64,000 bases of DNA from Pseudochelatococcus sp. (GCF_050946405.1 NZ_JBMNUS010000013.1:71443-135442); one strand, 5' to 3'. Counted from the stretch's first letter, positions 21,558-54,331 are shown. Numbers and translations: made by a program. The notes: generated from the sequence alone by a model not told the origin.

Positions 21558-21663
21558 ATTTCACGCATTTTCACGGATATTCAAGAGGTGCCTCATCAAT
21601 GGGCAGAGACTGCCTAATGGGTAGTCACATCGGCAAAAATTGCATGATAACGACAAAAATTGC
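21558..21663 (+). promoter_or_regulatory. Low-GC upstream region of the megasynthase gene with two pairs of direct repeats (candidate operator/promoter)
   Basis: ATTTCACG occurs at 21558 and 21568 (10-bp phasing). CAAAAATTGC occurs at 21634 and 21654 (20-bp phasing). This is the only AT-rich patch between the MFS gene and the FAAL domain. Confidence 0.3.
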
Positions 21664-21711
21664 GTCGCGGGGAGAGGCGGGCGCTTGCGTCGTCATCTCC
21701 CATATCGTTAC

Positions 21712-24700
21712 ATGTCGGCGACAATCAGGCAGACTTTCCCCTCCCGATCGGATCAGCCGTTCATGTGCTCGTTCAAAGCGCCGTCGACGCTCAATGACGC
21801 CCTTGTCTCAAATGCGGGCGTGTCGGAGATCGGAGTTGCGGGCATTGGCGATCCGCCGCGCGGCGTGACCTTTTTCGGGGCCGACCGCCAGCTCACGCAT
21901 GTTTCCTACGCGCAGTTGCTCGACCGCTCCCGCCGCTGGCTGTGGCATCTGACGCAGGGCGGCGTCCGCCCCGGCGACGAGGTGCTGATCGTCACCGACG
22001 ACCTGCCGCTGTTCACGACGGTTTTCTGGGCCTGCGTGCTCGGCGGCATCGTCGCCGTGCCGGTCTCGACACCCACGAACGACGAGGGGGCGCTCAAGAT
22101 CGCGCGTATCCGGGGCGTTCTGCGGCGTCCGTGGATCGTCTCGGACGCGCGGGTGCATGCTCGCCTCGCCGCCGTCGCGGACGGGATCGCGCCGGAACGC
22201 ACGGCGTGCGCCGGCGAGCGCTCGATCGCGGTTCCCGGCGTCGTGCTCGATTGTCCGGCGGCGCCGGTGGCATCCGTGGCGGCGTCGGATGTGGCCTTCA
22301 TCCAGTTTTCCTCCGGCTCGACGGGCGCGCCGAAGGGCGTGATCGTCACCCACGCCAACCTGATCGCCAATTGCACGGCCATTCTCAAGGGCATCCTTGC
22401 GAACGCGCCCGGTGAAAACGGAGAAGCCGCGCGCCTGTTGAGCTGGATGCCGCTGACGCATGACTTCGGCCTCATCTGGTTCCACATCCTGCCGACCGTC
22501 TTCGGGCTGGATCACGGCCTCGTCCCGACGAAGCTCTTCGTGCGCAACCCGCTGGTGTGGATGCAGGCGGCCTCCGACATGAAGGCGAGCGTGCTCGGCG
22601 GGCCGAATTTCTCTTACCGGCATTTCCTCAAGCATTTCGATGCCGGCAAGCCGCGCGACTGGGATCTGTCGCCGGTCCGCGTCATCGCCAACGGCGCGGA
22701 GCCCATCTCCTGCGAACTGGCGGAGGAGTTCACCGCGGCGCTCGCGCCTTGCGGACTCGATCGCGGGGCGATGACCGCCGCCTACGGGCTGGCGGAAGGC
22801 ACGCTGGTGGTGAGCATGGCGCAGCCCGGCGCGGGGCTCGGCCGGATTTCCGTCGACCGCAACCGCGTCAATCCCGGCGAGCGCGTCGCGCCGCTGGATG
22901 AAGGCGATGACGCCGCGGTGAGTTTCGCGGATGTCGGGACGCCGCTGGATTGCGTGTCGCTGCGCGTTGTCGACGAGGCGGGGCTGCCCTGCGCCGACGA
23001 TGTGGTCGGCCGCTTGCAGATAACCGGCGCGAGCGTGACCGCCGGTTACTACAACGACGACGAGGCGACGCGCGCCGCCTTCACGGCGGACGGCTGGCTG
23101 GATACGGGCGATCTGGGCTTCATGCGCGCCGGGCGTCTCGTCGTCACGGGCCGCCGCAAGGACGTGATCATCGTCAACGGGGTGAACTACTATCCGCAGG
23201 ACATCGAGCGCGTGGCCGGCGAGGCGGAAGGGCTCGACCTCAACATGGTGGTCGCCGGCGCGATCCCGCGCGGGGTTCTCGGCGAGGATCGGGAAGGCGT
23301 CGTGCTGTTCGTGCTGTTCCGGCGCGAGGTGGAGCGGTTCCTCCCGCTCGCCCGCGAGGTGCGCGACCGCGTGCTGCGCGAGATCGGCATTCCCGTCGAT
23401 CGCGTCATTCCGGTGGCCCGCATCGCCAAGACGACGAGCGGCAAGGTGCAGCGCTTTCAGATGGTGGGGCAGTTCGTCGCCGGTGCGTTCGATGAAGCGT
23501 TGCGCGCGCTCGATGCGGCGGATGCGGCCGAGGGCGCCGCGCTGCGCCGGGCGTGGGAGCGGGGCGACGAGGCCGCGCTGGTGGCGGAACTGGCGGCGTG
23601 GGGCGCGCGCATCGTGCCGGGCGGCGCGCTCGATCCGGGCCGGCCGCTCATGGAAAGCGGCTTCACGTCGCTGCGTCTCGTCGAACTGATGCGGCGCATC
23701 GGCCGCGCGCTCTCGCTGGACCTGCCGGTCACGCTCGCCTTCGAACAGCCGACGCTGGCGGCGCTCGCCGGCGCGCTCGTGCGCCTGCGCAGCGCCGATG
23801 CCGCGCCTGCGGAAGCGCCGCGCGCCGCGCCGGCGGCGGAGCGGGCGCGGATCGGCATCACCGGGCTGGCCTGCCGCCTGCCCGGCGGCGTTGAAAGCCC
23901 GGCCGGCTTCTGGCGGCTGCTTGAAGGCGGCGTCGATGCGACGGCGCCGGTCGCGCCCGGCCGCTGGCCGGCTTACGACGCCAGCCTGACCGTGACCGAT
24001 CGCGGCGGCTATCTGGCGGATATCGAAACCTTTCCGGCCCGGTTCTTCAATCTGACGCAGGTGGAGGCCGATGCCGTCGACCCGCAGCAACGGCTGCTGC
24101 TCATGACGGCCTGGGAGGCGCTGGAGCACGCGGGGATCGATCCGCTGTCGCTGAAGGGATCGCGCACCGGCGTGTTCGTGGGCATCAGCCCCGGCGATTA
24201 CGTGCAGGCGCAGGCGCGCGCCGGCCGGCTCGACGCCATCGGCCCGCATGCGTTTCTCGGCAGCGCAACGAGCGTCGCGGCCGGGCGCATCGCCTATGTG
24301 CTGGGGCTGGAGGGGCCGGCGCTGGCCGTCGACACGGCCTGTTCGTCGGCGCTCGCGGCGCTCCATCTCGCGGTGCGGGCGCTGCGGGCCGGCGAGTGCG
24401 ACCGCGCGCTGGTGGCGGGCGTCAATCTCATCCTCGGCCCCGAGATGCATGTGGGCCTCAGCCGCATGAACGCGCTGTCGCCCGCGGGGCGCTGCCGGGC
24501 TTTCGACGCGGCGGCGGACGGCTACGCGCGCGGCGAGGGCTGCGTCACGCTCGTGCTGGAGCGTCTCGATGCCGGAGATGCGCCACGTCCGCTCGCCCTT
24601 GTGCGCGGCACGGGCCTCAACCACGACGGCGCGTCGAACGGGCTCACCGCGCCCAACGGCGCGGCCCAGCGGGCGGTGATCGCCGCCGCGCTCGCGGATG

Positions 24701-27700
24701 CGGGCCTTGCGCCGGCCGATGTCGACTATGTGGAGGCGCACGGCACCGGCACGCCGCTCGGCGACCCGATCGAGGCGATGGCGCTGGCGGAAGCCTACGG
24801 CGCGGGGCGCGACGGCGAGCTGCGCGTCGGCTCCGTCAAGACCAACATCGGCCATCTGGAGGCCGCCGCCGGTCTTGCCGGCCTCGCCAAGGCGGTGCTC
24901 GCGCTCCGGCATGGCAGCCTGCCGGCCTCGCTGCATTTCGAGACGCCCAATCCGCTGATTCCGTGGCCGCAACTGCCCCTGCGCGTCGTCGACCGCGCCG
25001 AGCCGTGGCCGGCCGTGGCCGGGCGGGTGCGCCGGGCCGGCGTCAGCGCCTTCGGCATGAGCGGCACCAACGCGCATGTCATCATCGAGGAAGCACCGCC
25101 GGCGCCCGTGCCCGCGCATGACGACGCGCGGGCGACGGTGCTGCCGGTTTCCGCGCGCACGCCGGAGGAATGCGCCGCGCTGGCGGAGCGTTACGCGGCC
25201 GCGCTGGAGCGCGCCGACAGCGGCCGCATGCACGATCTGGCCCGCACGGCAGCGTGCGGCCGGGCGGCGATGGCGCATCGGCTGGCGGTGACGGGACGCG
25301 ATCCGGCGGAACTCGCCGCGAAGTTGCGGGCGAAGGCCGCCGCCGGGGCTGGCAGGCCCGATGCCGGCGCGCCCGTCGTCTTCCTGCTGCCGGGGCAGGG
25401 GGCGCATGCGCCGGAGGCGGTGCGCGCGCTCCATGCGCGCGAGCGCGTGTTCCGTGAGACGCTGGATGCGGCCGATGCGGCGCTTGAGGGCTTTCTGGAC
25501 CGGCGCCTGACCGATCTCCTGCTGTCGCCGGAGGGCGCGCCGCTTCTGGGGCGCACGGCCTACAACCAGCCGGCGACGGTGGCGGTGTCGCTGGCGGTGG
25601 CGGCGATGCTGCGGGCGTTCGGCGTGCGGCCCGATGCGGTCATCGGGCATTCGGCCGGCGAGATCGCGGCGGCGGCGCTCGCGGGCATGCTGGATCTGCC
25701 CACGGCGGTGCGGTTCGCGGCGGCGCGCGGCGCGGCCATGCAGGCGCTCGACGGCGGCGCGATGATCGCGGTGCGCGCGCCGGCGCAGACGATCAACGAC
25801 GTGATTGCGCAGACCCTGGCGCGGGTCGAGGGCGTGGGCGTCGCCGCCTGGAACGCGCCGGCGCGCGTCACGCTGTCGGGGCCGCGCGAGGCGGTGGCGC
25901 GGGCGGCCGCCGTCCTGCGCGAGGCAGGCGCGCGCGTGGCAGAGCTGCGCGTGGCGGAGCTGGACGTGTCGCACGCCTTCCACTCGCCGATGATGGACGG
26001 CGCGCTCGCCCCCATCCGCGAACTTGCCGCCGGCCTCACGGTGAGCGCGGCGACGGGGCGCATGATTTCCACGCTGACGGGCGGGCCGGTCGATGCCGGG
26101 GCGCTGCGCGATCCCGCCTATTGGGCGCGGCAGGCGCGCGAGCCGGTGGCCTTTGCCGCCGCCGTGTCGGCGGTGGGGGGCGATGCGCCCGACCGCGTCG
26201 ATCCGGTTCTGATCGATCTTGGCGCGCGGCCGGTGCTGGCGCCGCTCGCGGCGGAGGTGCTGCCGCAGGCGCGCTGCCTCGCCGTCTGCGACGCGCGCCG
26301 GCCCGACGAGCGGCTCATCGAGACGCTGGGCGAACTGTTCGAAGCCGGCCGGCCCGTGGCATGGCCCGCCGTCTTCGCGGAGCGTCCCGGCCGGCTCGCG
26401 GAAGCGCCGACCTATCCCTTCATCGGCAAGACGCGCGTGCTGCCGACGGCCGGTGCGGATTCCCGCGCCGGCGAAGCGCAGGCGGCCGGCCGGGCGGAAG
26501 CGCTGCCCGTGCCCGCGGCGACAGCCCCGGTGGCGGGGCGCGAGGCGGTTGCGCACGTCATCCGCAGCGTCCTGCGCGGCGTCGCCGGGCTCCAGCCGGA
26601 GGAGGTGGCGGGCGATGCGACATGGTTCAGCCTCGGCCTCGATTCGCTGCTGATCGTCCAGCTCCAGCAGGCGCTGGCGCGCGAATACGCCATCGACCTG
26701 CCGCTCGCCGCCGTCATGGAGAACGGCGATACGCTCGACCGGCTCGTGACCCTCGTGGTGGAGCGCCTGCCCCGCGTGGCGCAAGCGCCGGTGGAAGCGC
26801 CCGTTATGGAGACGCCCGCTGCGGCGGCGGCTGGCGGCGAAGGCGTCGAGGGGCTTCTCGCCCGGCAGATCGACGCCATGAGCGCGCTGTTCAGCCAGCA
26901 ACTCGCGTTGCTTCAGGGCGGAGTCCGGCCGGCGGTTTCGACGCCCGCCGCTATCCCGGACGTCGCAGTCGCCGGGCCGGCCCCGGCCGCGCCGAAACGC
27001 GAGATCAAGGGCCTGTTCAAGGCGCTGCCGGCGCGCAGGGAGCAGGCGAATCCGGCGCAGGAGGCGCATGTGCGCCGCCTTGCCGCCGCCTTCAACGCCC
27101 GCACGCGCTCCTCGAAGGAGCATACGGCTGCCTATCGTGGCGTCTACGCCAACCCGCGCGCCGTGATCGGCTTCCGCCCCGAGTGGAAGGAGCTGAACTA
27201 CCCCCTGCATGTGGAGCGGGCGGAAGGGCCGTATGTGTGGGATATCGACGGCCATCGTTATGTCGACATCACCATGGGTTTCGGCGTGACGCTGTTTGGC
27301 CACAACCCGCCCTTCGTGCGCGAGGCGCTGGCGGCGGAGCTTGCCGCCGGCTTTCCCGTCGGCCCGCAGAGCGCGCGGGCCGGGCGGGTCGCCGCCATGA
27401 TCAGCGCCATGACCGGCGTGGAGCGGGTGGCGCTGTTCACCACCGGCAGCGAGGCCGTCATGGTCGCGCTGCGGCTGGCGCGCGCGAAAACCGGCCGGCG
27501 CAAGATCGTGACCTTCGTCAATTCCTATCACGGCACGTTCGACGGCGTGCTGGCGGTGGGCTGGACCGAGGGCGCGCGCGTGACGACCATGCCCGTGAGC
27601 GAAGGTACGCCGCAAGGCATGGTCGATGACGTGATCGTGCTGCGCTACGGCGATCCGGCCGCGCTCGACGTCATCCGCCAGCACCTCGCCGAACTGGCGG

Positions 27701-30700
27701 CCGTGGTGGTGGAGCCGGTGCAGAGCCGCGACCCGGCGGTGCAGCCGCGCGCCTTCCTGCACGAGTTGCGGGCGCTGACGGCGCAGGCGGGCGTCGCGCT
27801 CGTTTTCGACGAGACGATCACCGGCTTTCGCGTGCATCCCGGCGGGGCGCAACGCCATTTCGGCATCGAGGCCGATATCGTCACCTACGGCAAGGTCGTC
27901 GGCGGCGGCATGCCGATCGGCGTCGTCTCGGGAAGGCGGCATTATCTCGACGGCGTCGACGGCGGCGACTGGCAGTATGGCGACGATTCCGTTCCTTCCG
28001 CCCGCACCGCCTTCGTGGCCGGCACCTTCAACAACCATCCCCTGACGGCGGCGGCGGCGGAGGCGGTGCTGAAGCACCTCGCCGCCGAGGGGCCGCAGTT
28101 GCAGGAGCGGCTGAACGCCCGCACCGCCGCGATGTGCGCCGAGCTAGACGCCCTGTTCGCGGCCGAGGACGTGCCCGTCCGCATGGCGCATTTCAGCTCG
28201 CTGTTCCGTTTCGAGTTCGCCGGCGACACCGAGATCCTCAACTATCACCTGCTCAACAACGGCGTTTTCGTCTGGGAGGGGCGCAACTGCTTCCTCTCCA
28301 CCGCCCACAGCGACGACGACATCCGCTTCATCGTCGAGGCGGTGCGCAAGGGCATCGCGGAGATGCGGGCCGGCGGATGGCTGCCGCCGTCGCCGGGCCG
28401 CGCCGCGCCCGAGGCGCGCCAAGAGCATGGTGCGCGCGAGGAGGCAGGACCGGCGCCGCTCGGCCGGGGGCAGGGCGAGATGCTGGCGCTGCTCGAAGCG
28501 CGGCCGGAGGCGACGCTCGCCTATAACGAGATGGTGGCCTTCGCGCTCGACGGCCCGCTCGACCGGGAGGCGCTGCGCCGCGCCTTCGCCGGGCTCGTGC
28601 GGCGCCACGAGGCGCTGCGTTGCGCGGGCATCGACGAGACCGGCTGGCGCGCGGCGGCTCTTCCGCCCGCCGACCTGCCGGCGGAAGAGCCGGCCGAAGA
28701 AGGAGCGGTGATGGCGCGCCTGGCGCGCGAACTCGAAACGCCGTTCGATCTGCAACGCGGGCCGCTCATGCGCGCGCTGCTGCTGCGCCTTGCGCCGCAG
28801 CGGCATGTGGTGGCTTTCACCGTGCATCACATCGTCGCCGACGGCTGGTCGCTCGGCCTGATGGCGGGCGAACTCGCGGCGCTTTACGCCGCCGAACGGG
28901 CCGGCGTGGCGGCGGCGCTGCCGCCGGCCGAATCGTTCCGCGCCTTCGTCGCCTGGACGCAGGGCTTGGACGGCGGCGCGTCTCCGATGGCGGAAGACAG
29001 CGCGCCCGTCGTCCTGCCGGCCGCCGATTTCCCGCATCGCGCGTCCTTCCGCGGCGGGCGCGTCCACCGCCGCCTGTCGGCGGGCGGGCGGGAAGGCGAA
29101 GGCGTGTTCGATGCCGCGAGGCGTTTCGCGCGCGCGCATGACACAAGCCCGTTCACGGTGCTGCTCGCGGCCTATGCGCTGCTGCTCGGCCGCCTGTCGG
29201 ACCAGCGCCGGCTGACCATCGGCATTCCCGTCGCCGGCCATACGGAGGCCGGCTTGCCGGTGATGGTGGGGCAGGCGTCGGCGGTGCTGCCGCTGACGCT
29301 GGAACTCGATCCGCAAGCGGATTTCGCAGCCCTCGTTGCCCATGTGAAGGCGGCGCTGGCCGATGCCCGGCACGGCGTCGGCGGGCTCTTCACCGCGCAG
29401 GGCGGGCGGGGCACCGATGTCAACGTGCTGTTCAACCTCGACCGCGGTTTCCGGCTCGATTTCGAGGGATTGGGGCTGACGTGGATATCGCCTCCGGTCA
29501 GCCGGCCGAAAAAGGACCTGTTCCTCAACGTGCTGGAGCTGAACGGCGAAGCGCTGCTCGATCTCGATCATGACGGTGCGCTGGGCGATTCCGCCACGGC
29601 GGAGCGCTGGCTCGATTCCTTCCTGTCGCTGCTCGCCGAGGGGCTGCGCGCGCCCGCGACGCCGATCGCGCGCCTGCCGCTCTCCGCCGCTGACCGGGCG
29701 GCACAGGCGGATGATGTGCGCACGCGCGACGGCTTCGGCGCGCCGGCCGCCATCGGCACGGTCGCGCCGGTGGAGGCGCGCGACGATGCGGGGCTTTGGG
29801 CCGACACGGGGCGGCTCGGCCGGCTGCGGGCGGATGGCGGCGTCGAGGTGCTGGGCGAGGCGCGGCGTTTCCTGCGCACGCGCGGCGGCTGGCTCGATCT
29901 CGACCTTCCGGCGCGGGTGCTGCGGGAACACCCGGCGCTGGCCGATGCCGCCGTGATCGCGGAATCCGGCGGGCTGACCGCCTTCGTGACGCCGCGCGCG
30001 GGCGGGCAGGTCGACGGGCAGGCGCTCGCCGCCTATGCGGCGCTGCGGCTGCCGCCCGAGGCGCGGCCGGCCGCCTTCGTCGTGACGGATATCGCGCGCG
30101 ATGCCGGGGGGCGCGCCCTCCTGCGCGCCGATCACGGCGAGCGTCTCGCCACGCGCGCCCTCACGCCCGCCCGCACCGATGCGGAGAAGGCGGTCGCGGC
30201 GATCTGGGCCGAGGTTCTCGGGCTGGAGGAAGTCGGCGTCCTCGACAGCTTCTTCGACCTCGGCGGTCACAGCCTCAAGGCGCTCGCCATCCTCGCGCGC
30301 GTCGAGGCGCGGCTCGGGCGCACCGTGCGGCTGCGCGCCTTCTTCGAGGAGCCGACCGTGGCGGGGCTCGCGTCACGTCTGGGCGCGGGCGAGGCGCATG
30401 CCGTCATTCCGACCGCGGCACCGGCGGCGCATTATCCGGCGTCGAACGCGCAGGCGCGGCTGTGGATGCTCGACCGGATCGATCCCGGCCTTGCCGCCTA
30501 CAACATCGGCTTTTCGCTGCGCAGCGCCGCGCCTCTCGACGAAACCGCGCTGCGGATCGCGCTGGCGGGCCTCGCCGGGCGGCACGAGAGCCTGCGCACG
30601 GCGCTCATCGACCATGACGGCCTGCCGCGCCAGACGATCCTGCCCGCGTTGCAGCCCGAGCTGCGCATCGAGGATGCGGTGGGCGCGGACGCGGCGGCGC

Positions 30701-33700
30701 TCGTCGCGCGGGAGCGGGCCATCGCCGCCGAGCCCTTCGCGCTGGAGCGCGCGCCGCTCTGGCGGGCGGTGCTGCTGCGCGGGGGGCAAGGGGATATCGA
30801 GCCGGCGGGCGACCGTCTGGTGTTCGTGCTGCATCATGCCATTGCCGATGTGTGGTCGGTCGGCGTTTTCGTGCGGGATTTTCTGGCGTTGTACGCAGAG
30901 GCCGGCGGCGCACGGCTGCCGGCGCTGGCGCTGCAATACCGGGATTATGCGGTCTGGCAGGTGGGGCGGCCGGAGCCGCATCTTGACTGGTGGGTCGCGG
31001 CGCTGGCGGATGCGCCCCGGCTGGAGCTGCGGCCCGACCGGCCGCGCCCGCCGCTCAAGACCTTCAACGGCGATCATGTCGTTCTCGATGTGCCGGGGCC
31101 GGTCGCGGCGGCCCTCAAGGCGCTTGCCGCCGTCAACGGCGCGAGCGCGTTCACGGCGGTGGTCGCGGCGCTCTGCAACCTGCTGTGGGAAGAGACGGAG
31201 GCGCGCGACATCGTCATCGGCACGGTGACGGCGGGGCGCGACCATCCGGCGCTCGCGGACCAGATCGGTTTCTTCGTCAACACGCTGGCGCTGCGCGCGC
31301 GGGTGGCGCCGGAGGCGGGCTTCCTGCCGCTGCTCGCGGGCGTGCGCGATGCGCTGCTGGCGGCGGCCGAACATGGCGATACGCCGCTCGACCGGGTGGT
31401 CGAGGCGTTGAACCGCCCGCGCGATCCGGCGCGCAATCCGCTGTTCGAGGTCGTCGTGGTCATGGACGACCGCGAGGAGATCGACCGGCTGCTCGCCGGC
31501 ACCGGCTTCGCGCTCGCGGAAATCGACACGGCGACGGCGCAGTTCGACCTCACGCTTTATGTCACCGACGGCGCGGACGGCATCCGCATCAAGGCGACCT
31601 ACAATACCGACCTGTTCGACCGCGCCCGCATCGAGGGACTGATGGCGCGGCTGGCGGGGCTGATGGCGGGGGCGGCCGCCGATCCGGCGCGCGCGCTCGC
31701 CGCGCGGGCGCAGGGGGGCAGGGCGGCGCATGGTTCCGCGCCTGGCCAACGGCAAGGCTACGCGCCGTCGCGCCATCAGGAGCGGCTGTGGTTCGTGGAT
31801 CACTTCGAGCGCGGCGTGCTCTATCCGTCCGGGCCGACCTATTACAACATGCCGTTCGTGGTGCGCGTCGACGGCGCGGTCGATGCCGCGCGGCTCGCGG
31901 CTGCCGCTGCGGCGCTTGCGGCGCGGCATGAGGCGCTGCGCGCGGCGCTCGTCACGCAGGGCGACCGTCCGGCCGTCGAGGTCGCGGCGGCTGCGGCGCT
32001 GCCGGTTGCGGAGATTGCGGCGCCGGCGGGGGCGGGGCTTGCCGCAGTCGAGGAGGCGAGCCGCGCGGCCTTCGACCTCGATACGCCGCCGCTCGCCCGT
32101 CTGACGCTCTGCCGCGAGGCGGGGAGCGGCGCCTGCTGGCTCGCCCTGACGGTTCATCACGCCATGGGCGACCGGGCGGCGCTGCGCACGCTGGCGGAGG
32201 AACTCGCCCGCCTTTATGCCGACCCGGCCGCCGCCCTGCCGGAAATCCGCCCCTTCGGCGCGGCCCATGCGCTGCCGGAGCGGGCGGTGGAGGCCGGCCA
32301 TGAGGCGGATGCCGCCTATTGGCGCGAGGCGCTGGCGGGCGTTTCCGCGCTCGTGCTGCCGACGGACCGGCCCCGCCCCGCGATCCACACCTTCACGGCG
32401 GGCCGCGTCGCGGGGCGGCTCGACGCGGCGCTGCGCGGGCGGATCGACGCGCTGGCGGCGGCGCTCGGCGTGAGCCGGGCGGATGTGCTGCGCGCCGGTT
32501 ATCAGGCGTTGCTGCATCGTCTTTCCGGCCAGCGGGATGTCGTCATCGGCGAGACCGTGCAGCCGCCGCAACCGGCGCGGACGGTCGGGCCGCTCGCCAA
32601 TCTCCTGCCCTTGCGGCTCGACGTGGAGGCCGGCGAGGGCTTTGCCGCGCTGGTGCGGCGCGCGGCGGCGCGGCGGCAGGCGGATGCGGCGCATGGCGCG
32701 ATCCCCTTCGATCTGCTGGTGCTGGCGGTGAAGCCGCGCAACGACATGAGCCGCACGGCGCTGTTCGATGTGCTGTTCCACCATGAGAATGCGACCGCCG
32801 CCCTGCCGGCCGGGTGGGCGGCGGTCGACACCGGGCTCGGCTGGGGCAAGTACGATTTCGTGCTGTCCGTGGTGCCGGATGGCGACGGGCTGGCGGTGAG
32901 CCTCGTCTACAACCGCGACCTTTTCGACGCCGCCAGCGCGCAGGCCGTCCACGCGCGCTACGGGCAACTGCTGGCGGCGGCGCTGGCGCAGCCGGAGCGG
33001 CCGCTGTCTGCGCTCGACATCATGCTGCCGGGAGAGCGCGCGGCGCTGCTGGCCGAAGCCGGCGAGGTGGCCGATTACCCGCGCGGCCTCACGCTCACGG
33101 CGCGTTTCGAGGAGATGGCGGCGCGCCACGGGGCGCGCATCGCCGTCACCGACACCGACGGGGAACTGACCTATGCGGCGCTCGACGCGCGCGCCAACCG
33201 GCTGGCGCATCGCCTGCGCGCGCTCGGCGCGGGACCGGAGGCGCTGGTCGGGCTGTTCGTGGGGCGCACCTGGCGCATTCCCGCTGGCATTCTCGGCATT
33301 CTCAAGGCGGGCGCGGGCTATGTGCCGATCGATCCCGCCTATCCCGACGAGCGCATCCGCTTCATGGTGGCGGATTCGGGCATGCGGCTCATCGTCACCG
33401 ACGCTGAAAACGCGGCGGCGGCGCACCGCCTCGGCATTGCTACGGTGGTGATCGATGATCTGGCGGAGGACCTGCCCGTCGCGGCGACACCCGAAAATGC
33501 CGCGCCCGAAAATGCTGCGCCCGAGAACGTCGCTTACGTCATCTACACGTCCGGTTCCACCGGCATGCCCAAGGGCTGCGTCATCGAGCACCGCAACGTC
33601 ATCCAGCTCTTCTTCCACGAGGGGCGGCCGTTCGCCTTCGGGCCGGATGACGTGTGGAGCCTGTTCCACTCCGCCTGTTTCGACTTCTCGACGTGGGAGA

Positions 33701-36354
33701 TCTACGGCGCGCTGCTCTTCGGCGGCCGGCTCGTCGTCGTGCCGCAGGCGCTGACGCGTGAGCCCGCCGCCTTTCTGGAACTCGTCGCCCGCGAGGGGGT
33801 GACGGTGCTGAGCCAGACGCCGACCGCCTTTTACGGGCTGATCGAGGCGGCCCGGCAGCGCCCCGGCCTGCATCTTGCGCTGCGCGAGATCGTCTTCGGC
33901 GGGGAAGCGCTGGCGCCGGCCCGGCTTGCCCCGTGGCGGGCGCTCCACCCGGCCGCGCGCCTCGTCAACATGTACGGCATCACCGAAACGACGGTGCATG
34001 TGACGTTCAGGGAGATCGGCGACGCCGAGATCGCGGAGGGCCGCAGCGTCATCGGCCGGCCGCTGCCGTCCTGCGGCGTGTTGCTCGTCGGCCCCGATCT
34101 CGCGCCCTGCCCGCGGGGCGTGGCCGGCGAGATCGTGGTCGCGGGCCACGGCGTCGCCCGCCGCTACCTGAACCGGCCGGAACTCACGGCGGAGCGCTTC
34201 ATCGCGCACCCGGACCTGCCCGGCGGGCGCGTCTACCGCTCCGGCGATCTCGGCCGGATCGGGCTTGACGGCGAGCTGGTCTATCTCGGCCGCATGGACG
34301 ATCAGGTCAAGATACGCGGCTTTCGCATCGAGCCTGGCGAGATCGAGCGCCGGCTGGTCGCGCATCCCGCGATCCGCGATGCGGCCGTTCTCGCCGAGGG
34401 CGGCGAGGGCGGCGAGGGCGCGGCGGGCGAGAGCCTCTGCGCCTGTGTCGTCACCGATGCGCCGCCCGGCCGCGAGGAGCTGTTTCACTATCTGGCGGAC
34501 AAGCTGCCCGACTACATGATTCCGTCGCGCTTCCTGCGCGTGGCGCGCATCCCGCTCACGGCCAACGGCAAGGCGGACCGCCGGCGGCTCGCGGCGGAGG
34601 GCGGCGAGGCGATCGGCGCGGGGGGCGGCGCGGAGGAAGGCCGGGCGCCGCGAACGCCACTGCAAAAGGCGGTGGCGCGCATCTGGTGCGAGGTGCTGGG
34701 CGTGCCGCAGGTGGGGCTCGACGACAATTTCTTCGCGCTCGGCGGCCATAGCCTCAAGGCCAATCAGGTCGTGGTGCGCATCCGCCAGCGCCTCGGCGGC
34801 AGTCTCGACCTGCGCGATTTCTTCAGCGCGCAGACGCTCGCCGTGCTGGTCGAGCTGATCGAGCGGCGCGGGCTCGGCGCGGCGGGCACTATTGCCCCGG
34901 CGCCGTCCGCGCCCGACTATCCGCTCTCCTTCGCGCAGCGCCGGCTGTGGCTGGTGCAGAACATGAACCCCGATAGGGTGGCCTACAACATGGCCGGCGC
35001 CTTCGTCGTGGAGGGGGCCGTCGACCGGGAGCGGCTGGCGGCGGCGTTCCGGGCGCTGGCGGTGCGCCACGAGATCCTGCGCACGCGCTTCGTCTCGCGC
35101 CACGGCGAGCCCCGGCAGGTGGTGGATGCCGGCATCGACGGGCATATGGCGGTGTTCGAGGCCGGCCATGACGCGGGAAGCGGCGGGATGGCGGCCGTGG
35201 AGCGGCTGCTCGCGGCGGAGCTTCGCCATGTCTTCGATCTCGCGCGCGGGCCGCTGGCGCGGGTGCATCTGGCGGAGCTGCCCGTCAAAGGGCACGGCGG
35301 CTGCGCCATCATCATCAACCTGCATCATATCGTCTCCGACGGCTGGTCGGTGACGGTCATGCTGCGCGAGCTGGAGGCGCTCTACCGCGCGGCGCTGGCT
35401 GCGCCGCAGGCGACGCCGGCGGAGATCGCGGCGCGGGCCGGGCTGCCGGCGCTGCCGGTCCAGTACCGGGACTATGCCTTGTGGCAGCACGGCGAGGCGG
35501 CGGGCGAAGGGTTGCGGGCGGCCCGCTCCTACTGGCTCGCCCGCTTCGAGGACGAGGCGCCGGCGCTGGAACTGCCGGCCGACCGGCCGCGTCCGCATAC
35601 GCCCGGCGGGGCCGGCGCCATCGTGCATGCCGTGCTCGACGAGGAACTGACGCAGGCGCTGAGGGACCTCGCGCGCCGCCACGACATGAGCCTGTTCGGC
35701 GTGCTCGCCGCGCTCGTGCGGGTGCAGCTCGCGCTCCTGTCGGGGCAGGACGACATCACCATCGGCACGCCGGTCGCCGGCCGCAACCTGCTGGAGCTGG
35801 AGGGGCAGATCGGCTTCTACCTCAACCTGCTGGCGCTGCGCGGCCGCATCGGGCCGCAGGATGCCTTCGGCGATGTCCTGAAGGCGGAGCGCACCCTGGT
35901 GCTCGACGCCTTCGCCCATGAAGCCTGTCCGTTCGACCTCCTGGTCGGGGAGCTGGGCGTCACGCCGGAGCGCGGCCGCCATCCGCTTTTCGACGTGCTG
36001 ATCATTCTCCAGAACAACGAGCCCGTGCGCCTCGACCTTGCCGGGAGCCGGGGCGCGCCGCTGCGCGATACCAGCATCAGCGCCAAATACGATCTCAACT
36101 ATATGTTCGAGGACCGGCCGGCGCTCGAACTGCTGCTGGAATACGCGGCGGATCTTTTCGATGCGGACACGGCCCGCCGCATCGCCGGGGATTTCGTCGC
36201 CCTCGCGCGGGCGGTCGCCGCCGATCCCTCCATCGGCGTCGACAGCCTGCGGGATCGCATGCAGCGGGCCGTGCCGCCGCCGGATGCGCCAGCGGCGGAT
36301 GTGCTGGCGCATGACGCGGCGCATGGTGCGGCTTTTGCCGATGACGGGTGGTGA
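21712..36354 (+). CDS. Hybrid FAAL-PKS-aminotransferase-NRPS megasynthase: FAAL-ACP-KS-AT-ACP-AMT-C-(A remnant)-PCP-C-C-A-PCP-C
   Basis: A single ORF (21640..36354; the 21640 codon is TTG) carries all the motifs listed in the domain features below. The most likely ATG starts are 21712 (MSATIRQ) or 21763 ([14 protein letters not shown]). Confidence 0.95.
   Translation: [4880 protein letters not shown]
21850..23490 (+). other. Domain: fatty acyl-AMP ligase / acyl ligase (FAAL-like adenylation domain)
   Basis: [22 protein letters not shown] (about 22290-22350), [37 protein letters not shown], and a terminal SGKVQRF. Confidence 0.85.
23560..23790 (+). other. Domain: ACP1
   Basis: [19 protein letters not shown]; the candidate Ppant Ser codon is at 23668..23670. 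Confidence 0.7.
23845..25110 (+). other. Domain: ketosynthase (KS)
   Basis: VDTACSS with Cys at 24340..24342, [27 protein letters not shown], and it ends at [10 protein letters not shown]. Confidence 0.9.
25370..26290 (+). other. Domain: acyltransferase (cis-AT, malonyl-type signature)
   Basis: [16 protein letters not shown] with Ser at 25651..25653, and SHAFHSP (the HAFH motif is associated with malonyl-CoA selection). Confidence 0.85.
26530..26770 (+). other. Domain: ACP2
   Basis: [18 protein letters not shown]; Ser codon at 26644..26646. Confidence 0.85.
27080..28390 (+). other. Domain: PLP-dependent class III aminotransferase (AMT, glutamate-1-semialdehyde aminomutase-like)
   Basis: [42 protein letters not shown], and [13 protein letters not shown] with the candidate PLP Lys at 27892..27894. 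Confidence 0.85.
28450..29690 (+). other. Domain: condensation C1
   Basis: HHIVADGWS at 28825. Confidence 0.85.
29700..30150 (+). other. Vestigial adenylation-domain remnant (C-terminal subdomain only, motifs decayed)
   Basis: There are only about 190 codons between the end of C1 and the PCP1 serine. WADTGRL stands in place of A7, [22 protein letters not shown] in place of A8, and DAGGRALLR in place of A10. No A1-A6 motifs are present. Confidence 0.7.
30170..30390 (+). other. Domain: PCP1
   Basis: [11 protein letters not shown]; Ser codon at 30271..30273. Confidence 0.9.
30420..31700 (+). other. Domain: condensation C2
   Basis: [16 protein letters not shown] at the start; HHAIADVWS at 30832. 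Confidence 0.85.
31760..33010 (+). other. Domain: condensation-like C3 (tandem to C2, atypical active-site context HHAMGDRAA)
   Basis: It starts [30 protein letters not shown], with HHAMGD at 32155. No carrier domain lies between C2 and C3. Confidence 0.75.
33070..34600 (+). other. Domain: adenylation A2 (by-eye code DFWSVGMVHK, Thr-like)
   Basis: [14 protein letters not shown] (about 33540), [51 protein letters not shown]. Confidence 0.85.
33490..33534 (+). repeat. In-frame 15-bp tandem repeat x3 ([15 protein letters not shown]) inside A2
   Basis: cccgaaaatgccgcg / cccgaaaatgctgcg / cccgagaacgtcgct, read directly. Confidence 0.9.
34650..34870 (+). other. Domain: PCP2
   Basis: [11 protein letters not shown]; Ser codon at 34750..34752. 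Confidence 0.9.
34915..36354 (+). other. Domain: C-terminal condensation C4
   Basis: [16 protein letters not shown] at the start; HHIVSDGWS at 35323. The protein ends about 340 codons later with no carrier or TE domain. Confidence 0.85.
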
Positions 36355-36357
36355 GCC

Positions 36358-38247
36358 ATGTGCGGCATCGTGGGATTTCTCGACCGGGATGGCGCGCCGC
36401 GCCCGCACGATCTGCTGCGCCGCATGGCGGAGGCCGTGCGCCACCGGGGGCCGGATGACGAGGGCTTCTTCACCGGCGACGATATCGGTCTCGGGTTCCG
36501 CCGTCTGTCGATCGTCGATCTGGAAGGCGGGCGGCAGCCGATGTTCGCCGGCGACGGGCGTGTGGCGGCCATCTGCAACGGCGAGATCTACAACCACGCC
36601 GAGCTGCGGGCCGATCTCACGGCGCGCGGCCACCGCTTCCGCACGCGCTGCGACACGGAGGTGATTCCGGCGCTGTTCCTCGAATACGGGCTCGACTTTC
36701 CGCGCCGCATCAATGGCCAGTTCGCCTTTGCCGTCTACGATCGGGAGACGCGCCGGCTGGTGCTGGGGCGCGACCATGTGGGCATCGCGCCGCTGTTTCA
36801 TGCCGAGGTCGGCGGGCTGCTGTTGTTCGGCTCGGAAATCCGGGCGCTGCTGTGCCATCCGGGCCTTGCCCGCGATGTCGACCTGACGGCGCTCGACCAG
36901 ATCCTGACCTTTCCGGGGCTGGTGAGCCCGCGCACGATCCTGGCGAACGTGCGCGCGCTGCCGCCGGGGCATCTGCTGGTGGCCGATCCCGGCCGGCCGC
37001 CGCGCCTCGATCGCTTCTGGGATCTCGATTTTCCGCGCCATGATGAGTTTCCGCGCCATGACGAGATCGGCCCGCCCGGCCGGGCGGACGATTACGTCGA
37101 CGAGCTGGACGCCGCGTTGCGGCAGGCGGTGCGCTACCGGTTGCAGGCCGATGTGCCGGTCGCCGGCTATCTGAGCGGCGGCCTCGACAGTTCGCTCGTC
37201 GCCGCCATCGTCGCCGATCTGGAGCCGGGGGCCACGCGGCATACGTTCTCCATCACCTTTCCCGACAGGGCGATCGACGAGCGCGAGCCGCAGCGCCTCG
37301 TCGCGGCGAGGCTCGGCACCGCCCATCACGAGCGGGAGATCGATCCCGCGCGACTCGCCGCCGGGCTCGACCGCATCGTGGGCTGTGCCGAAGCGCCGCT
37401 GCGCGAATCCTATAACGTATGCTCGCTGCATCTGTCGGGCATGGTGCGCGAGGCCGGGCTCAAGGTGGTGCTCACCGGCGAGGGCGCGGACGAGCTTTTC
37501 GGCGGCTATGTGGGCTACAGGCTCGATGCGGAGCGCGCGCCTGACGCGGACGACCCTTACGATCTCGACGCGCTGATCGAGGGCGAGTGGCGCGAGCGCC
37601 TGTGGGGAGACAGCCGTTTCTTCTACGAGAAGGATTATGGCGCGAGCCGCGACATCCGCCGCGAACTCTACGCGCCGGCGCTGGCCGAGCGCTTCGAGGC
37701 GTTCGACTGCCTCGCCCATCCGCTTGTCGACCGCGCGCAGATCGAGGGCCGGCATCCGTTTCATATCCGCTCGTATCTCGATTTCAAGCTGCGCCTGGCC
37801 GATCATCTGCTGGCGGATCACGGCGACAGGGTGAGCTTCGCCAATTCCGTCGAGGCGCGCTATCCGTTTCTGGACATCGGCGTCATCGACGTGGCGCGCC
37901 GCATCCCGCCCGCCCTCATGGTGCATCAGGGCGAGGAAAAGCATATCCTCAAGCGTCTCGCCCGGCGCTACCTGCCGGCGCAGATCGTGGAGCGCAAGAA
38001 GTTCAGCTTCGTCGCCCAGAGCAGCGCCACGCTGCTGCGCGAGGGCGTGCCGCGCGTGCGCGAGGTGCTCGACGAGGCACGCGTCGCGGCGGACGGCTAC
38101 TTCAGCCCGGAGGCGGTCGCGCATCTCAAGCAGCGGCACGCCGCGCCGGGCGCGGAACTCAACCAGACCTTCGAAGACGACTTCCTGATGGTCGCACTGA
38201 CCTTCGGGATCCTGCGCGAACAATTCGATCTGCCGAAACTCTCATGA
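36358..38247 (+). CDS. Asparagine synthetase B-type glutamine-dependent amidotransferase
   Basis: N-terminal nucleophile MCGIVG, the PP-loop SGGLDSS, and a length of 629 aa. It starts 4 nt after the megasynthase stop codon, and its stop overlaps the next NRPS start (ATGA). Confidence 0.9.
   Translation: MCGIVGFLDRDGAPRPHDLLRRMAEAVRHRGPDDEGFFTGDDIGLGFRRLSIVDLEGGRQPMFAGDGRVAAICNGEIYNHAELRADLTARGHRFRTRCDTEVIPALFLEYGLDFPRRINGQFAFAVYDRETRRLVLGRDHVGIAPLFHAEVGGLLLFGSEIRALLCHPGLARDVDLTALDQILTFPGLVSPRTILANVRALPPGHLLVADPGRPPRLDRFWDLDFPRHDEFPRHDEIGPPGRADDYVDELDAALRQAVRYRLQADVPVAGYLSGGLDSSLVAAIVADLEPGATRHTFSITFPDRAIDEREPQRLVAARLGTAHHEREIDPARLAAGLDRIVGCAEAPLRESYNVCSLHLSGMVREAGLKVVLTGEGADELFGGYVGYRLDAERAPDADDPYDLDALIEGEWRERLWGDSRFFYEKDYGASRDIRRELYAPALAERFEAFDCLAHPLVDRAQIEGRHPFHIRSYLDFKLRLADHLLADHGDRVSFANSVEARYPFLDIGVIDVARRIPPALMVHQGEEKHILKRLARRYLPAQIVERKKFSFVAQSSATLLREGVPRVREVLDEARVAADGYFSPEAVAHLKQRHAAPGAELNQTFEDDFLMVALTFGILREQFDLPKLS
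37030..37065 (+). repeat. In-frame 18-bp tandem duplication (FPRHDE FPRHDE) in the AsnB-like gene
   Basis: tttccgcgccatgatgag / tttccgcgccatgacgag, with one synonymous difference. Confidence 0.9.
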
Positions 38248-41200
38248 CAGGACAAGGCCCCGTGCACTCCACCATGCAGCCTCCCGTGCAGCGTCCCATG
38301 CAGCGTAGCTCCTACGTCGACCGGTTCGAGGAGAATGCACGGGCGCGCCCCGCCGCCGCCGCGCTGGCGACGGCGGCGGGTGAAGTGTCCTACGGCGCGC
38401 TCGACGCGCGGGCGCAGCGCCTCGCCCGGCGGCTCGCGCGGCTGGGGGCGGGGAAGGGCGTCATCGTCGGCCTGTTTCTGGACGCCGACGAAACCTATGT
38501 CGCGGCGCTGCTCGGCGCCGGCAAGACGGGCGGCGCCTTCCTGCCGCTGCCGCCGGACCTGCCGCCGCTGCGCGTCGCCGCCTGCCTCGCCAAAGCGGAA
38601 TGCGGGATCGTCGTGACGCTGGGCCGCCACCGCGCCGCGCTGGATGCGGCGCTGGCTGAAGCCGGCCGATCGGTCGCGGTCATCGAGGCGGATGCGCCGG
38701 ACGATGCCGGCGACGCCGCGCCGGTGGCGCGCGCCATCGGCCCTCACGATCCCTGCTACGTCATGTTCACGTCGGGCTCCACCGGCGCGCCGAAGGCCAT
38801 TCTGGGGCCGCATCGCAGCCTCTCCCACTTCCTGCGCTGGGAGGTCGGCGAGTTCGGGCTGGATGAGACGGTGCGCGGCTCGTGGCTCGCGCCCGTCACC
38901 TTCGATGTCAGCCTGCGCGACATCCTCGTGCCGCTCATGGCCGGGGGCACGCTCTGCATTCCCGATGCCGAGACGCGGATGGTGCCGCGCAAGCTGGTCG
39001 ACTGGCTGGCGCGCGAAAAGGTGACGCTGGTGCATTGCGTGCCGACGGTGCTGCGCCTGATCACGCGCGAGCTGGCCGACCGCGGCGGCGATGCCGGCCT
39101 TGCGGTGCGTCATCTGCTGGTGGCGGGCGAGCCGCTGCTCGGCGCGGATGTCGCGGCCTGGCGGGCGGCGGCAGGCGGGCGCGCCGAGGTCGTGAACCTC
39201 TATGGCCCGTCGGAAACCACGCTGGCGAAGGTGTTCCACCGCATCGGCGAATTGCCCGCCGATCCGCGGCGGGTGCTGCCCATCGGCCGGCCGCTGCCCG
39301 ACACATCGGTGCTCGTTCTTTCCAACGGCCGGCTTTGCGGCCCGCAGCAGATCGGCGAGATCCACATCCGCACCGCCTATCCCTCGCTCGGCTACCTGAA
39401 CGACGCGGCGCTGACGGCGGCGAGCTTCATCCGCAATCCGCTCGGCAACGACGATGCCGACATCGTCTACAAGACCGGCGATCTGGGGCGCTACCTGCCG
39501 GACGGCACCGTCGAATGCCTCGGCCGGCAGGACAATCAGGTCAAGGTCAATGGCGTGCGCATCGAGCTTGCCGAGATCGAGGTCGCGCTGCGCGCCGTCG
39601 CGGGCATCGCCAAAGCGGCGGCGGCGGTGCATGCGGGCGGCGGGGCCGATCCCGTGCTCGTGGGTTATTATGTGCCGGATGCCGGCGCGGCGCCGTCGGC
39701 GGAGGCGATCAAGGCGCAGCTCGGGCGCATCCTGCCGGCGGCCATGCTGCCGCACGTGCTGGTGCGTCTCGACGACCTGCCGCGCACCATCAGCGGCAAG
39801 CTCAATCGCAAGGCGTTGCCGCGCCCGGAGGAGCTGTTCTACGCCGAGCATGCCTATGTGGCGCCGCAGGGCGAGACGGAAGACAAGCTCGCGGCCATCT
39901 GGCGCGAGATCTTCGGCCTGACGCGCGTCGGCGTCGAGACCGCCTTTCACGATTTCGGCGGCGACAGCCTGCGGGCGATCCGCGCCGTGCAGAAGATCTT
40001 CCAGACATTCTCCGTCGAGATCAGCCTGAAGGATTTTCTCGCCGCCGCGACGATCCGGGAACTGGCGCGCCTCGTCGCGGCCGCAGTCCCCGCGCCGGTG
40101 AGCGCCATTGCGCGCGCGGCCGATGCGGCAAGCTATCCCGCCACCCCGGCCCAGAACCGGCTGTGGCGTCTCGACCGGCTCGGCATCGCCCCCACCGCCT
40201 ACAATCTGACGGAAGCGTGCGAGCTGCTGGGGCCGGTGAACGAGGCGGCGCTGGAGCGCGCCTTTCGCGACCTGATCGGCCGCCACGAATCGCTGCGCAC
40301 CACATTCGAGGAGGATGCGGACGGCAACGCGCGCCAGATCGTGCACCATGACACGCCCTGGCGGCTCGAACGCGTCGACCTGCGCCGCCATGCGGAGCCG
40401 GACCGCGCCGCCGCGCTGCTGGCGCGGGACAATGCCGGGCATCGCTTCGACCTGCATCGCGGCCCGCTGCTGCGCGTCGTGCTCGCCCGCCTGCCGGATG
40501 CGGAGGGCGCGGCGCGGCATGTGCTGCTGTTCAACATTCATCACATCGTCGCCGACGTGTGGTCGCTCGGCGTGCTGGTGCGCGAGGTGGCGGCGCTCTA
40601 TGCGGCGGCACTCGCCGGCCGCGACGCCGGCCTTGCGCCGCCGGCGCTGCAATTGCGGGATGTGGCCGTGTGGCAGGCCGGGCGGGCGGCCGCCGGCGCG
40701 CTGGACGGCGACCGCGCCTATTGGCTGGAGCGCTTCTCCGCGCTGCCCGCGCCGCTCGACCTGCCGGCCGACCGGCCGCGCCCGCCGGTGCAGACCTTCA
40801 ACGGCACCACGCGGCGCTTCCGCCTGCCGGCGGACCTGACCGGGCAGCTCGACGGCCTCGCGCGCCGGCACGGCACGACGCGCTTCGCCGTGGTCACGGC
40901 GCTGACGAAGGCGCTGCTGCACCGTTATACCGGACAGACGGATATCGTCGTCGGCAGCCCCGTCGCCGGCCGCACGGATGCGGCGCTGGCGGACCAGATC
41001 GGCTATTACGTCAACACGCTCGCGCTGCGCGACACTGCGGAGGCGGGAGCGCGCTTCGCCGACCTGCTCGCGCGCGTGGCGGCGACGGTGCGCGAGGGGC
41101 TCGCGCATCAGGATTACCCGTTCGACGCGCTGGTGCAGGAACTGCCGCTCGAACGCGACATGAGCCGCTCGCCGCTGTTCGACGTCATGGTCGTCGACCA

Positions 41201-50400: not shown

Positions 50401-50836
50401 GACGCCGCGCGCCGCCGTCACGCTGCTGCGGATCGAGCAGGACGCCCATCGCGAGATCGGCGGCATTCCGGGCTACGGCTTCGGCATCGGCATCGGGGCA
50501 AGCACGTATGAACAGGTGCGGTCCGAGGCATCCCTTGCGGTTGCGAAGACTTTCGACGTTTCCCTGGGCGGCTGGAGCGGCCGGCTCACGGGCGAGCTTC
50601 GCGCCGGCCTCGCGCGCGACATCGTGCTGAAGAGCGCGAACGGATGGGTCGACGTGCCCGGTTTCAGCCCCGTCGTCACCGGCGGCTTCAAGCGGAACGC
50701 CTGGGTGATGCCGGTCGGCGGCCGGCTGGAGCTGGCGGCGAGCGACTCGCTCTCCGTCTTCGCCGCCTACGATGGCGCGTTCTCCAGCCTCGGTGGCGTC
50801 AATACGGTGCGCGGCGGCTTACACTGGCGTTTCTGA
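47402..50836 (+). CDS. Autotransporter with a beta-lactamase-fold (S12 / class C / family VIII esterase-like) serine hydrolase passenger
   Basis: Signal peptide ...AAAVTGTALAADV. SxxK = SASK (Ser at 47702), YSN (48038), HSG (48509). Passenger repeats such as GNGIGTLTVGGYAG lie near 49490. The C-terminal beta-barrel (about 49990-50836) ends in GGLHWRF. Confidence 0.85.
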   Translation: MTIMLGTSQWREGGGRWLRRFALGSAAAAAVTGTALAADVSQVGPVLQGFLDATASQGTLQGVAIGVDLPGGEGSWFGGGGYRDIARTEPLGADLQFRIGSASKTFTGTAVLQQVDQGLIGLGDSIDKWVPDLNVPGGDRITVENLLSMTSGIPDYLGAESIHSPGNTILQEWANFHGPAGSHGNADYTPEQLVGAVVDSLGASFGPVGEMFYSNTNFALLGIIAQRASCLGASGCRTIDEMVNGIAASMGLADTVFPASSAFTAPYAETAQVVIGDASYYGVPPGSSFDMTFLDPRVPWAAGAVLSTPADELKWVRQLATNSDGLLSAQTQAERVGVAEPGEVSGVPVFYGLALYAMPGVGSGTYLTGHSGLIGGDTASLFYNPALDVAYAVNFLGYQANALPWFPLYGASDALGRYVYAGREGGNYSSVMILWALDRNVTLALTAQGSCSYGAGPQGAGGDRTCAGDSVRTTPIAVTDGTLTIAPSHLTMGNYYIDPVTGAVSLAQVARPSLAMFGSHSAAVALQGGASLVLPQGATAELWGTNSATVSMTGADNAAHIGGTLLTYGVDSVAVRIMGDRNRVNVLPTGAVVGASAPAIAMSGRDNAAVIGGSVTTYGHGIERIAIAGEGGGNRVEVEPTGYVGGDIALAGDGNRVRVDGIVSGHVPMAGGDAVLSGEGVITGVVGGGGTVAPGNGIGTLTVGGYAGRDTRLMIETGPGGASDLLAVAGPASLTGGSLHVTPPPAAASGIYNVLSAGAVEGAFAAATTGGRVGLGVQYTPTAVNVAAVNPFLFDAAVRTGAADTLRNLDLFEERAAAFAASATSAAPAGAARGPAAGAQAENLKEWFSRRGASAAGSRAAGAAVWASAYGAFDRHAADGPVPTIASEGGGVAVGADAEPLPGLLVGAMGAYSRTQATTPANPGMKFSSDAYKAGVYGAYEAGRVLFSASLLAGRGDDTTTRAVESGALAGVAQGSFDDFRLAARVGARATFDVGAGVRLTPRAAVTLLRIEQDAHREIGGIPGYGFGIGIGASTYEQVRSEASLAVAKTFDVSLGGWSGRLTGELRAGLARDIVLKSANGWVDVPGFSPVVTGGFKRNAWVMPVGGRLELAASDSLSVFAAYDGAFSSLGGVNTVRGGLHWRF

Positions 50837-54318: not shown

Positions 54319-54331
54319 TCCGGCCGGGCAC

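Follow-up and report, generated by a model that had tools for sequence, protein, structure and literature searches.

Several described systems use the fold of the nonribosomal peptide synthetase (NRPS) condensation (C) domain beyond condensation. In the megapolipeptin synthetase of Paraburkholderia megapolitana, MgpB is arranged as KS-AT-T-TA-C-A-T and MgpC as C-C-A(Thr)-T-..., the second MgpC C domain reads HHxxxDR, and the product has L-Thr first and L-allo-Thr second; the authors grouped this second C domain with starter C domains and guessed its role (PMC11411415). Dehydrating C domains of the CmodAA type (AmbE-C2, AlbB-C2/C3, LgnD-C2) carry out non-canonical chemistry on carrier-bound beta-hydroxy amino acids; they are members of the D-clade with an intact DG in HHxxxDG, stand behind a carrier (T) domain of the GGDSx type and act on the donor (PMC10880069, PMC11342130). 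Interface (I) domains (Reitz et al. 2019, glidomide; MxgB, PMC13638107) are C-like domains that modulate beta-hydroxylation and that either separate a C from an adenylation (A) domain or stand first in their module. In the icosalide synthetase, two consecutive C domains of one module are both needed for one residue, the second being a starter C domain that N-acylates Ser (PMC10510592), and the glycopeptide X domain, which closes its assembly line, no longer has the catalytic motif and serves to recruit P450s. In this study we analyzed a stretch of 64,000 nucleotides (nt) from Pseudochelatococcus sp. (GCF_050946405.1 NZ_JBMNUS010000013.1:71443-135442; the window, with positions counted from its first letter), which contains a polyketide synthase (PKS)-NRPS gene with two consecutive C domains, C2 and C3, in front of a Thr-type A domain. 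C3 is a member of a discrete, LCL-derived family that we call C* and that is widespread across phyla. We give an even chance to the reading that C3 sets the C-beta configuration of the residue bound to the following carrier, T2, so that the module gives L-allo-Thr and not L-Thr or dehydrobutyrine (Dhb).

The PKS-NRPS gene (21640-36354, + strand) is translated as a single open reading frame (ORF) of 4,904 amino acids (aa); the product on record has 4,863 aa, and its true start is therefore probably near 21763. Pfam gives the order FAAL-ACP-KS-AT-ACP-class III aminotransferase-C1-(Asub relic)-T1-C2-C3*-A(Thr)-T2-C4. The original prediction, made from the sequence of the window alone, had described C2 as followed directly by a second full-length C domain, and PF00668 indeed covers both, over profile positions 3-441 of 456 for C2 (264.9 bits, E 1.6e-78) and 3-456 of 456 for C3 (207.4 bits, E 4.4e-61). 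The active-site motifs HHAIADVWS of C2 (30832) and HHAMGDRAA of C3 (nt 32155, aa 3506) are where it had placed them, the linker is as short and as rich in Ala, Gly and Arg as it had said, and Pfam gave no PP-binding or AMP-binding match between the two domains, which leaves no carrier or A domain there. The N-terminus of C3, SRHQERLWFVDHFERG (SRHQERLWF...), begins at nt 31768. The code of the next A domain, extracted by alignment to GrsA numbering, is the Thr-type DFWSVGMVHK that had been read by eye; the extraction procedure is validated by a clovibactin-type cluster, for which it returned the expected order Phe-Leu-Lys-Ser-Asn-Ala-Leu-Leu.

The solved structures nearest to C2 are LCL domains (Txo2, 206 bits; TycC6, 178 bits), its HHxxxDVWS motif is kept in all orthologues, and C2 is presumed to be the peptide-bond catalyst of the Thr module. 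T1 is its donor carrier, and C1 receives the ACP-borne beta-amino fatty acyl chain. An AlphaFold2 model of C3 (pLDDT 93, pTM 0.91) superposes on the C domains of Txo2, TycC5-6, FscG and LgrA at TM 0.82-0.88; the modelled C3 is therefore a true C-family fold, in keeping with its earlier description as condensation-like.

Relatives of C3 were collected in two ways. An exhaustive HMMER search with C3 led to 150 giant NRPSs, whose domains were mapped with the window's own domains as queries, and an alignment-based pattern scan covering one genome per species gave 251 loci, 80 of which were kept; a genome scan with single-sequence patterns had returned no match. Tandem C-C pairs were rare in the 150 large NRPSs (18 of 832 C domains), and 10 of the 18 were of the C3 type. 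Almost all of the best single-domain matches of C3 either came second among the C domains of a T-C-C-A-T tandem or opened a protein. When 1,151 C domains were scored with a hidden Markov model (HMM) of the C* family minus one of bulk LCL domains, the log-odds were bimodally distributed with one bin empty, and 94 domains fell on the C* side. C3 scored +222, while C2, C4 and C1 of the same protein scored -176, -216 and -75. The C* profile gave 296-316 bits on solved LCL structures, 239 on the glycopeptide X domain (4tx2), 92 on the AmbE CmodAA domain (7r9x) and 87 on CDA C1 (4jn3).

The C* family is marked by an N-terminal signature, S[YF]HQERLWFIDxFExGxxYxxxPxYHNxP (a Y(H/Y)N variant being allowed), and by HHxxxD[R/K/P]xS[LM], DMSRTALFD and G.GKYD; C3 carries all of its signature motifs (HQERLWF...FE.G..Y...P.Y(H/Y)N.P, HHxxxD[R/K/P], DMSRTALFD and G.GKYD). 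Close orthologues of the whole gene are found in Xanthobacter, Methylobacterium, Bradyrhizobium, Azospirillum and Telmatospirillum, and more distant C* members in Acidobacteriota, Bacteroidota, Lysobacter, Janthinobacterium, Pseudomonas, Methylovulum, Verrucomicrobiota, Chloroflexota and Streptomyces. Other searches yielded less: protein homologue searches with C3 alone or with the C* profile returned fragments shorter than about 800 aa, nearly all generic LCL domains, and a megablast of the region against plasmids gave short generic NRPS matches only. A literature search found no paper that gives a function to a C*-type domain, and HHxxxDR was mentioned in the megapolipeptin paper only.

The catalytic residues of the family are strongly conserved. 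Among 90 non-identical members the two motif His residues are kept in 99% and 97% and the Asp in 100%, whereas the Gly of HHxxxDG is replaced by R in 51, K in 20, P in 10, Q in 3, H in 1 and other residues in 4, with G itself in 1. About 15 positions are invariant in C* only, including a second conserved His at aa 3583. Across six alphaproteobacterial orthologues C3 is 48-63% identical, on a par with C1, C2 and C4, while the C2-C3 linker falls to 6-25% and the Asub relic to 2-54%, being deleted in one. This pattern argues that C3 is functional and not a relic, because it is conserved like its neighbour domains while the linker and the relic decay.

The context of C* is fixed as well. A C* domain lies directly after a C domain in 71 of the 94 cases, at the start of a protein or ORF in 20 and after a gap in 2, the remaining one being C3 of the window, which follows C2. 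For 18 ORF-start members in fetched loci, the upstream ORF ends in a C domain in 11 and in a weak T match in 1, and the other 6 lie at a contig edge. Overall, 82 of 88 assessable members are preceded by a C domain and none by a clear T domain; the junction between C2 and C3 is frequently a gene boundary in other organisms. In every tandem inspected the first domain is canonical, with PLSFAQQRLWF at its N-terminus, HHxxxDGWS as its motif and a GGHS T domain before it. The N-terminal PLSFAQQRLW and the HHxxxDGWS motif rule out that this first domain is an epimerization (E) domain, and its canonical nature in all tandems also rules out that C3 is the peptide-bond catalyst and C2 the extra domain.

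Behind C* stands a Thr-code A domain in 78 of 83 cases, compared with 42 of 809 behind other C domains (Fisher p = 2.5e-74, uncorrected for shared ancestry), and the layout of the window, C2 (LCL)-C3-A(DFWSVGMVHK), matches this context. C3 is the non-canonical, Thr-related C-family domain that the original prediction had taken it for. The nearest neighbours of the A domains behind C* are each other in 76 of 78 cases; C* and A travel as a unit, since these A domains form a group of their own. No position strictly discriminates the A domains behind C* from plain Thr A domains, and the 10-residue code is identical; the one consistent difference lies near GrsA position 242, which is mostly Y behind C* and W in plain Thr domains. 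Other tandem C-C pairs, whose second domain is not C* (Flavobacterium chilense and three others), precede Ser, Gly, Val and other A domains, and several carry HHxxxDGWC or HHLIVDGWG motifs. Further inserted C-like subtypes with residue preferences of their own may exist.

Comparison of C* loci with known products connected the module with allo-Thr. In Lysobacter enzymogenes and Lysobacter sp. the codes read Leu-Arg-Ile-[C-C*-A(Thr)]-Gly-Asn; in these lysobactin-type loci Arg is followed by a dual E/C domain (HHxxxDH) and Thr by an LCL domain, and the T domain is of the GGHS type. We take this order to be positions 5-10 of lysobactin, with D-Arg6 and allo-Thr8, the latter presumably in the L configuration. 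A lysobactin-like cluster has been reported in L. enzymogenes (PMC5397603). A Janthinobacterium locus reads Gln-Gly-[C-C*-A(Thr)]-His, which matches positions 6-9 of jagaricin; jagaricin B has N-Me-L-allo-Thr as residue 8 and, as its remaining residues of Thr origin, L-Thr, D-allo-Thr and Dhb (PMC12077216). The third line is megapolipeptin. As judged from the published description, its gene is the closest published architecture to that of the window, the two sharing KS-AT-T-aminotransferase-C-(A)-T followed by C-C-A(Thr)-T (PMC11411415), and the second MgpC C domain has HHxxxDR like C3 in the module that gives L-allo-Thr. The two differ in that MgpB keeps a full A domain with an odd code where the window has only the Asub relic, and in their downstream modules. 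Read from these loci, the C* module appears to coincide with L-allo-Thr in the lysobactin-type, jagaricin-type and megapolipeptin lines.

A course of events that would fit these data is as follows. C1 would couple the beta-amino fatty acyl chain with the T1-bound unit, and the A domain would load L-Thr onto T2. T2 would then approach C3 from its acceptor side, and there the residue would take on the allo configuration at C-beta; C3 could work only on a residue held by T2, because it has no upstream carrier of its own. C2, fed by T1, would condense the T1-bound chain with the T2 residue, and C4 would pass the chain on with C-alpha kept L, because T2 is of the GGHS type and C4 is an LCL domain. 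C3 may act in one of two ways: it may catalyze the change itself through its conserved HHxxxD(R/K) pocket, or it may dock an unlinked enzyme acting in trans, in the fashion of an interface domain. As a further alternative, C3 may gate for L-allo-Thr chosen by the A domain. We lean towards autonomous catalysis in the window, because the catalytic His is conserved and a partner enzyme is not encoded there. The 64-kb window held no oxygenase or reductase candidate: neither TauD, P450 nor cupin oxygenase was present, and a TauD (CloD) query against all six frames gave no match. Siderophore-type beta-hydroxylation was ruled out, TauD not being found in the window.

Several observations weigh against assigning C3 this role. 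Any chemistry of C* members is putative. The link with allo-Thr comprises three products, two of which were mapped through related genomes and not through the producer strains, and a review enters the lysobactin residue as D-allo-Thr (PMC10628113). A domains behind C* share no more than 43-50% identity with the plain Thr A domains of the same protein and might select free L-allo-Thr directly. The subclade of the window lacks the C4 motif YxDFAxWQ and the Ser that follows D-R. C* is interface-like and the family is not strictly specific for Thr or allo-Thr, because five other members precede non-Thr codes and one lies in an Asn module of the clovibactin type. The latter was found in Eleftheria terrae P9846 by tblastn against plasmids as one outstanding match with 45% identity. 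Its locus (plasmid NZ_CP106952, 469035-498858) encodes an ABC transporter and a TauD dioxygenase along with two NRPSs, and its codes read Phe-Leu-Lys-Ser-[C-C*-A(Asn)]-Ala / Leu-Leu, the clovibactin order, so that this C* (log-odds +122, HHIVADRRSL) lies in a hydroxy-Asn module beside TauD, the arrangement typical of interface domains.

A common denominator of C* modules, which is speculative, is erythro stereochemistry at C-beta. L-allo-Thr is erythro; clovibactin presumably carries (2R,3R)-hydroxy-Asn, which would be derivable from an L-erythro intermediate; and Reitz et al. are said to have linked stand-alone hydroxylases and I domains to L-erythro products. A broader proposal is that C*, and possibly I domains too, form a new class of catalysts with the condensation fold that inverts C-beta (threo to erythro) of carrier-bound beta-hydroxy amino acids and is the source of L-allo-Thr in Gram-negative nonribosomal peptides (lysobactin, jagaricin/herbicolin-type peptides, megapolipeptins). 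We regard this as possible but doubtful. A plausible route would be a His-mediated retro-aldol/aldol reaction, or elimination and re-addition on the thioester; after alpha-epimerization, C-beta inversion would give D-Thr.

The alternative that survives best, which we consider rather unlikely, is that C3 is a non-catalytic I domain that positions a trans tailoring enzyme, an alpha-ketoglutarate oxygenase or another enzyme encoded elsewhere, on the T2 residue. The original prediction had allowed for such a non-catalytic scaffold. The position of C3 between C and A is that of an I domain, the module residue has, as in I-domain modules, a beta-hydroxyl whose stereochemistry is of consequence, and besides the C* member of the clovibactin-type hydroxy-Asn module with TauD, 9 of about 77 C* loci have a CloD-like TauD gene no more than 10 kb away. 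The lack of catalysis fits less well: the MxgB I domain is without the motif or its second His (PMC13638107), whereas HH is kept in 97-99% and HH/D in 97-100% of C* domains. The residue concerned, Thr, is already beta-hydroxylated, and the window is without a hydroxylase. A recurrent partner family is absent at most C* loci; a census of flanking genes for a universal partner counted Asn_synthase 11, TauD 6 and Asp_Glu_race 4 times in 116 ORFs, none being universal. By their descriptions, then, C* differs from I domains in keeping both His and Asp, in preceding a Thr A domain in about 94% of cases and in usually having no hydroxylase gene nearby. The X domain is a C fold put to a use other than condensation; it has lost the motif that C* keeps, and the P450s it recruits have no counterpart in the window.

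Quite improbable, in our estimate, is that C3 supports unusual loading or iteration, such that the one Thr A domain serves both T1 and T2 with a C3-mediated transfer or a second Thr-Thr condensation, or that C3 adds a second acyl group to Thr. T1 is well conserved although it has no A core, and megapolipeptin contains two Thr units with one clear Thr A domain, for which the authors propose iteration or capping by the second C domain (PMC11411415); the icosalide tandem is a precedent (PMC10510592). On the other hand, C* occurs in ordinary lysobactin- and jagaricin-type modules, where no carrier without an A domain lies close by and the product contains one Thr, and the first Thr of megapolipeptin is explicable by MgpB's own C-A-T module. 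Unlike the second icosalide domain, C* is far from starter C domains, as its low score on CDA C1 indicates, and the known products have no extra acyl group. In the module after C1 (29797-30384) the adenylation core has been lost, and a decaying Asub relic precedes the well-conserved T1. Loading of T1 must therefore occur in trans; the one Thr A domain may be responsible if the Thr-alloThr of megapolipeptin is a guide, and a beta-amino fatty acyl-X-alloThr is therefore predicted at the start of the peptide.

The original prediction had also proposed that one of C2, C3 or C4 may convert the Thr-derived residue to Dhb, in the manner of a CmodAA-type dehydratase, or otherwise tailor it. The dehydratase reading is very hard to maintain for C3. 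In its favour, C3 stands beside a Thr A domain as an additional C-family domain with a changed active-site motif. Characterized dehydratases of this kind take the donor residue as substrate and are placed after its T domain (PMC10880069), whereas C3 lies upstream of the A domain and has no T domain before it; DG is strictly conserved in CmodAA (PMC11342130), whereas C3 reads HHAMGDR and C2 HHAIADV; and the T domain before CmodAA is GGDSx (PMC10880069), whereas T1 and T2 are both GGHSL. The clades differ as well, CmodAA being close to DCL and dual E/C domains and C3 being LCL-derived, as the scores of the C* profile on AmbE and on LCL structures illustrate, and C* modules of known products give intact allo-Thr and not Dhb. 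By its position it is C4 that could dehydrate the T2-bound Thr, and C4 is of the ordinary LCL type and follows a GGHS carrier; its best PDB matches are LCL domains. C2 and the C domain inside the following NRPS are LCL-like too, and AmbE was matched by none of the three. Judging from its sequence, nothing in the cluster predicts Dhb. Equally improbable is that C3 is the inactive scar of a deleted module: the neighbouring module has clearly lost its A core and C3 is without the G, W and S of HHxxxDGWS and without the C4 motif, but C3 is as conserved as functional C domains in six orthologues while the Asub relic decays, and it belongs to 94 members across phyla with family-specific invariants and a fixed context.

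The features of the PKS-NRPS gene around C3, and the gene that follows it, are collected in Table 1.

Table 1. Domains of the PKS-NRPS gene from C1 onwards and the adjoining AsnB gene, in window coordinates.
Feature	Position (nt)	Strand	Basis
C1 (HHIVADGWS), divergent C domain	28459..29739	+	Pfam PF00668 163 bits; log-odds -75
A-domain relic (Asub), C-terminal subdomain only, A core deleted	29797..30144	+	Weak AMP-binding_C match; NCBIfam matches to A-domain C-termini
T1 carrier (GGHS at 30262), own A domain absent	30175..30384	+	PP-binding 59 bits; 53-74% identity in orthologues
C2, canonical LCL-type (HHAIADVWS at 30832, aa 3065)	30430..31719	+	Pfam 265 bits; log-odds -176
C2-C3 linker, about 16 residues, Ala/Gly/Arg-rich	31720..31767 (about aa 3354-3376, nt 31699-31767)	+	Domain boundaries
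C3, C* family member; SRHQERLWFVDHFERGVLYPSGPTYYNMPF N-terminal, HHAMGDRAA at 32155, DMSRTALFDV	31768..33054	+	Pfam 207 bits; log-odds +222
A domain, code DFWSVGMVHK (Thr-type)	33106..34572	+	Pfam AMP-binding, AMP-binding_C; code extraction
T2 carrier (GGHS at 34741), predicted to hold the Thr-derived residue	34669..34860	+	PP-binding match; motif position
C4 (HHIVSDGWS), LCL-type, downstream of T2	34915..36249	+	Pfam 282 bits; log-odds -216
AsnB paralogue between C4 and its A-T partner	36358..38247	+	Pfam; TIGR01536 434.7 bits, cut-off 267.1

C4 belongs to a split module whose A-T half is encoded after the AsnB-like gene, in a gene that starts with A-T and has the code DVRHLALLAK. AsnB occupies this position in every orthologue and at four distant C* loci, and the order C / AsnB / A-T recurs beside C* in distant phyla. 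The AsnB paralogue may supply Asn, carry out an amidation or produce the substrate for the A domain with the code DVRHLALLAK. NRPS2 and NRPS3 lie at 38262-45683 and 53873-58387. The former reads A(DVRHLALLAK)-T(GGDS)-C(HHIVADVWS)-A(DAATIAAVCK)-T(GGDS)-E, its second A domain being Tyr-like and interrupted by a methyltransferase, and the latter reads C-A(DLTKLGHIGK, Asp)-T-TE. A GGDS T domain before an LCL-like C domain, as in NRPS2, is unusual. D-V-W-S replaces D-G-W-S both in C2 and in the internal C domain of NRPS2, and this is kept in all orthologues.

Within the cluster, beside a cyclic-peptide ABC exporter, 47402-50836 encodes a 1,144-aa protein with a serine beta-lactamase/penicillin-binding protein fold and a C-terminal autotransporter beta-barrel, which could be a surface-displayed peptide cyclase, a hydrolase or a self-resistance enzyme. 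Two ORFs in the cluster or adjoining it, at 50858-51814 (318 aa) and 59175-60335 (- strand, 387 aa), had no Pfam, NCBIfam or PDB sequence match. The 318-aa ORF lies between the autotransporter gene and NRPS3 and is the only unassigned candidate for a trans partner of C3.

For the organism, the expected product of the cluster would be a beta-amino-fatty-acid lipopeptide with allo-Thr and not Dhb. To our knowledge, the only route to L-allo-Thr proposed so far is one based on a short-chain dehydrogenase/reductase (SDR), for actinomycetes. The bacterial origin of L-allo-threonine in peptides has been stated to be unknown (globomycin cluster paper, PMC9943842). C* is a recurrent C-domain subtype with a plausible link to L-allo-Thr; as a marker of L-allo-Thr positions it would be a concrete candidate for that origin. 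Structure prediction would gain as well, since C* modules would now be called plain Thr, or C* itself mis-called a starter or inactive C domain. The C*-A(Thr) pair often starts where a protein naturally begins, and as such a portable unit it is an appealing means of building allo-Thr into engineered peptides. Finally, C* raises the question whether interface domains are truly non-catalytic.

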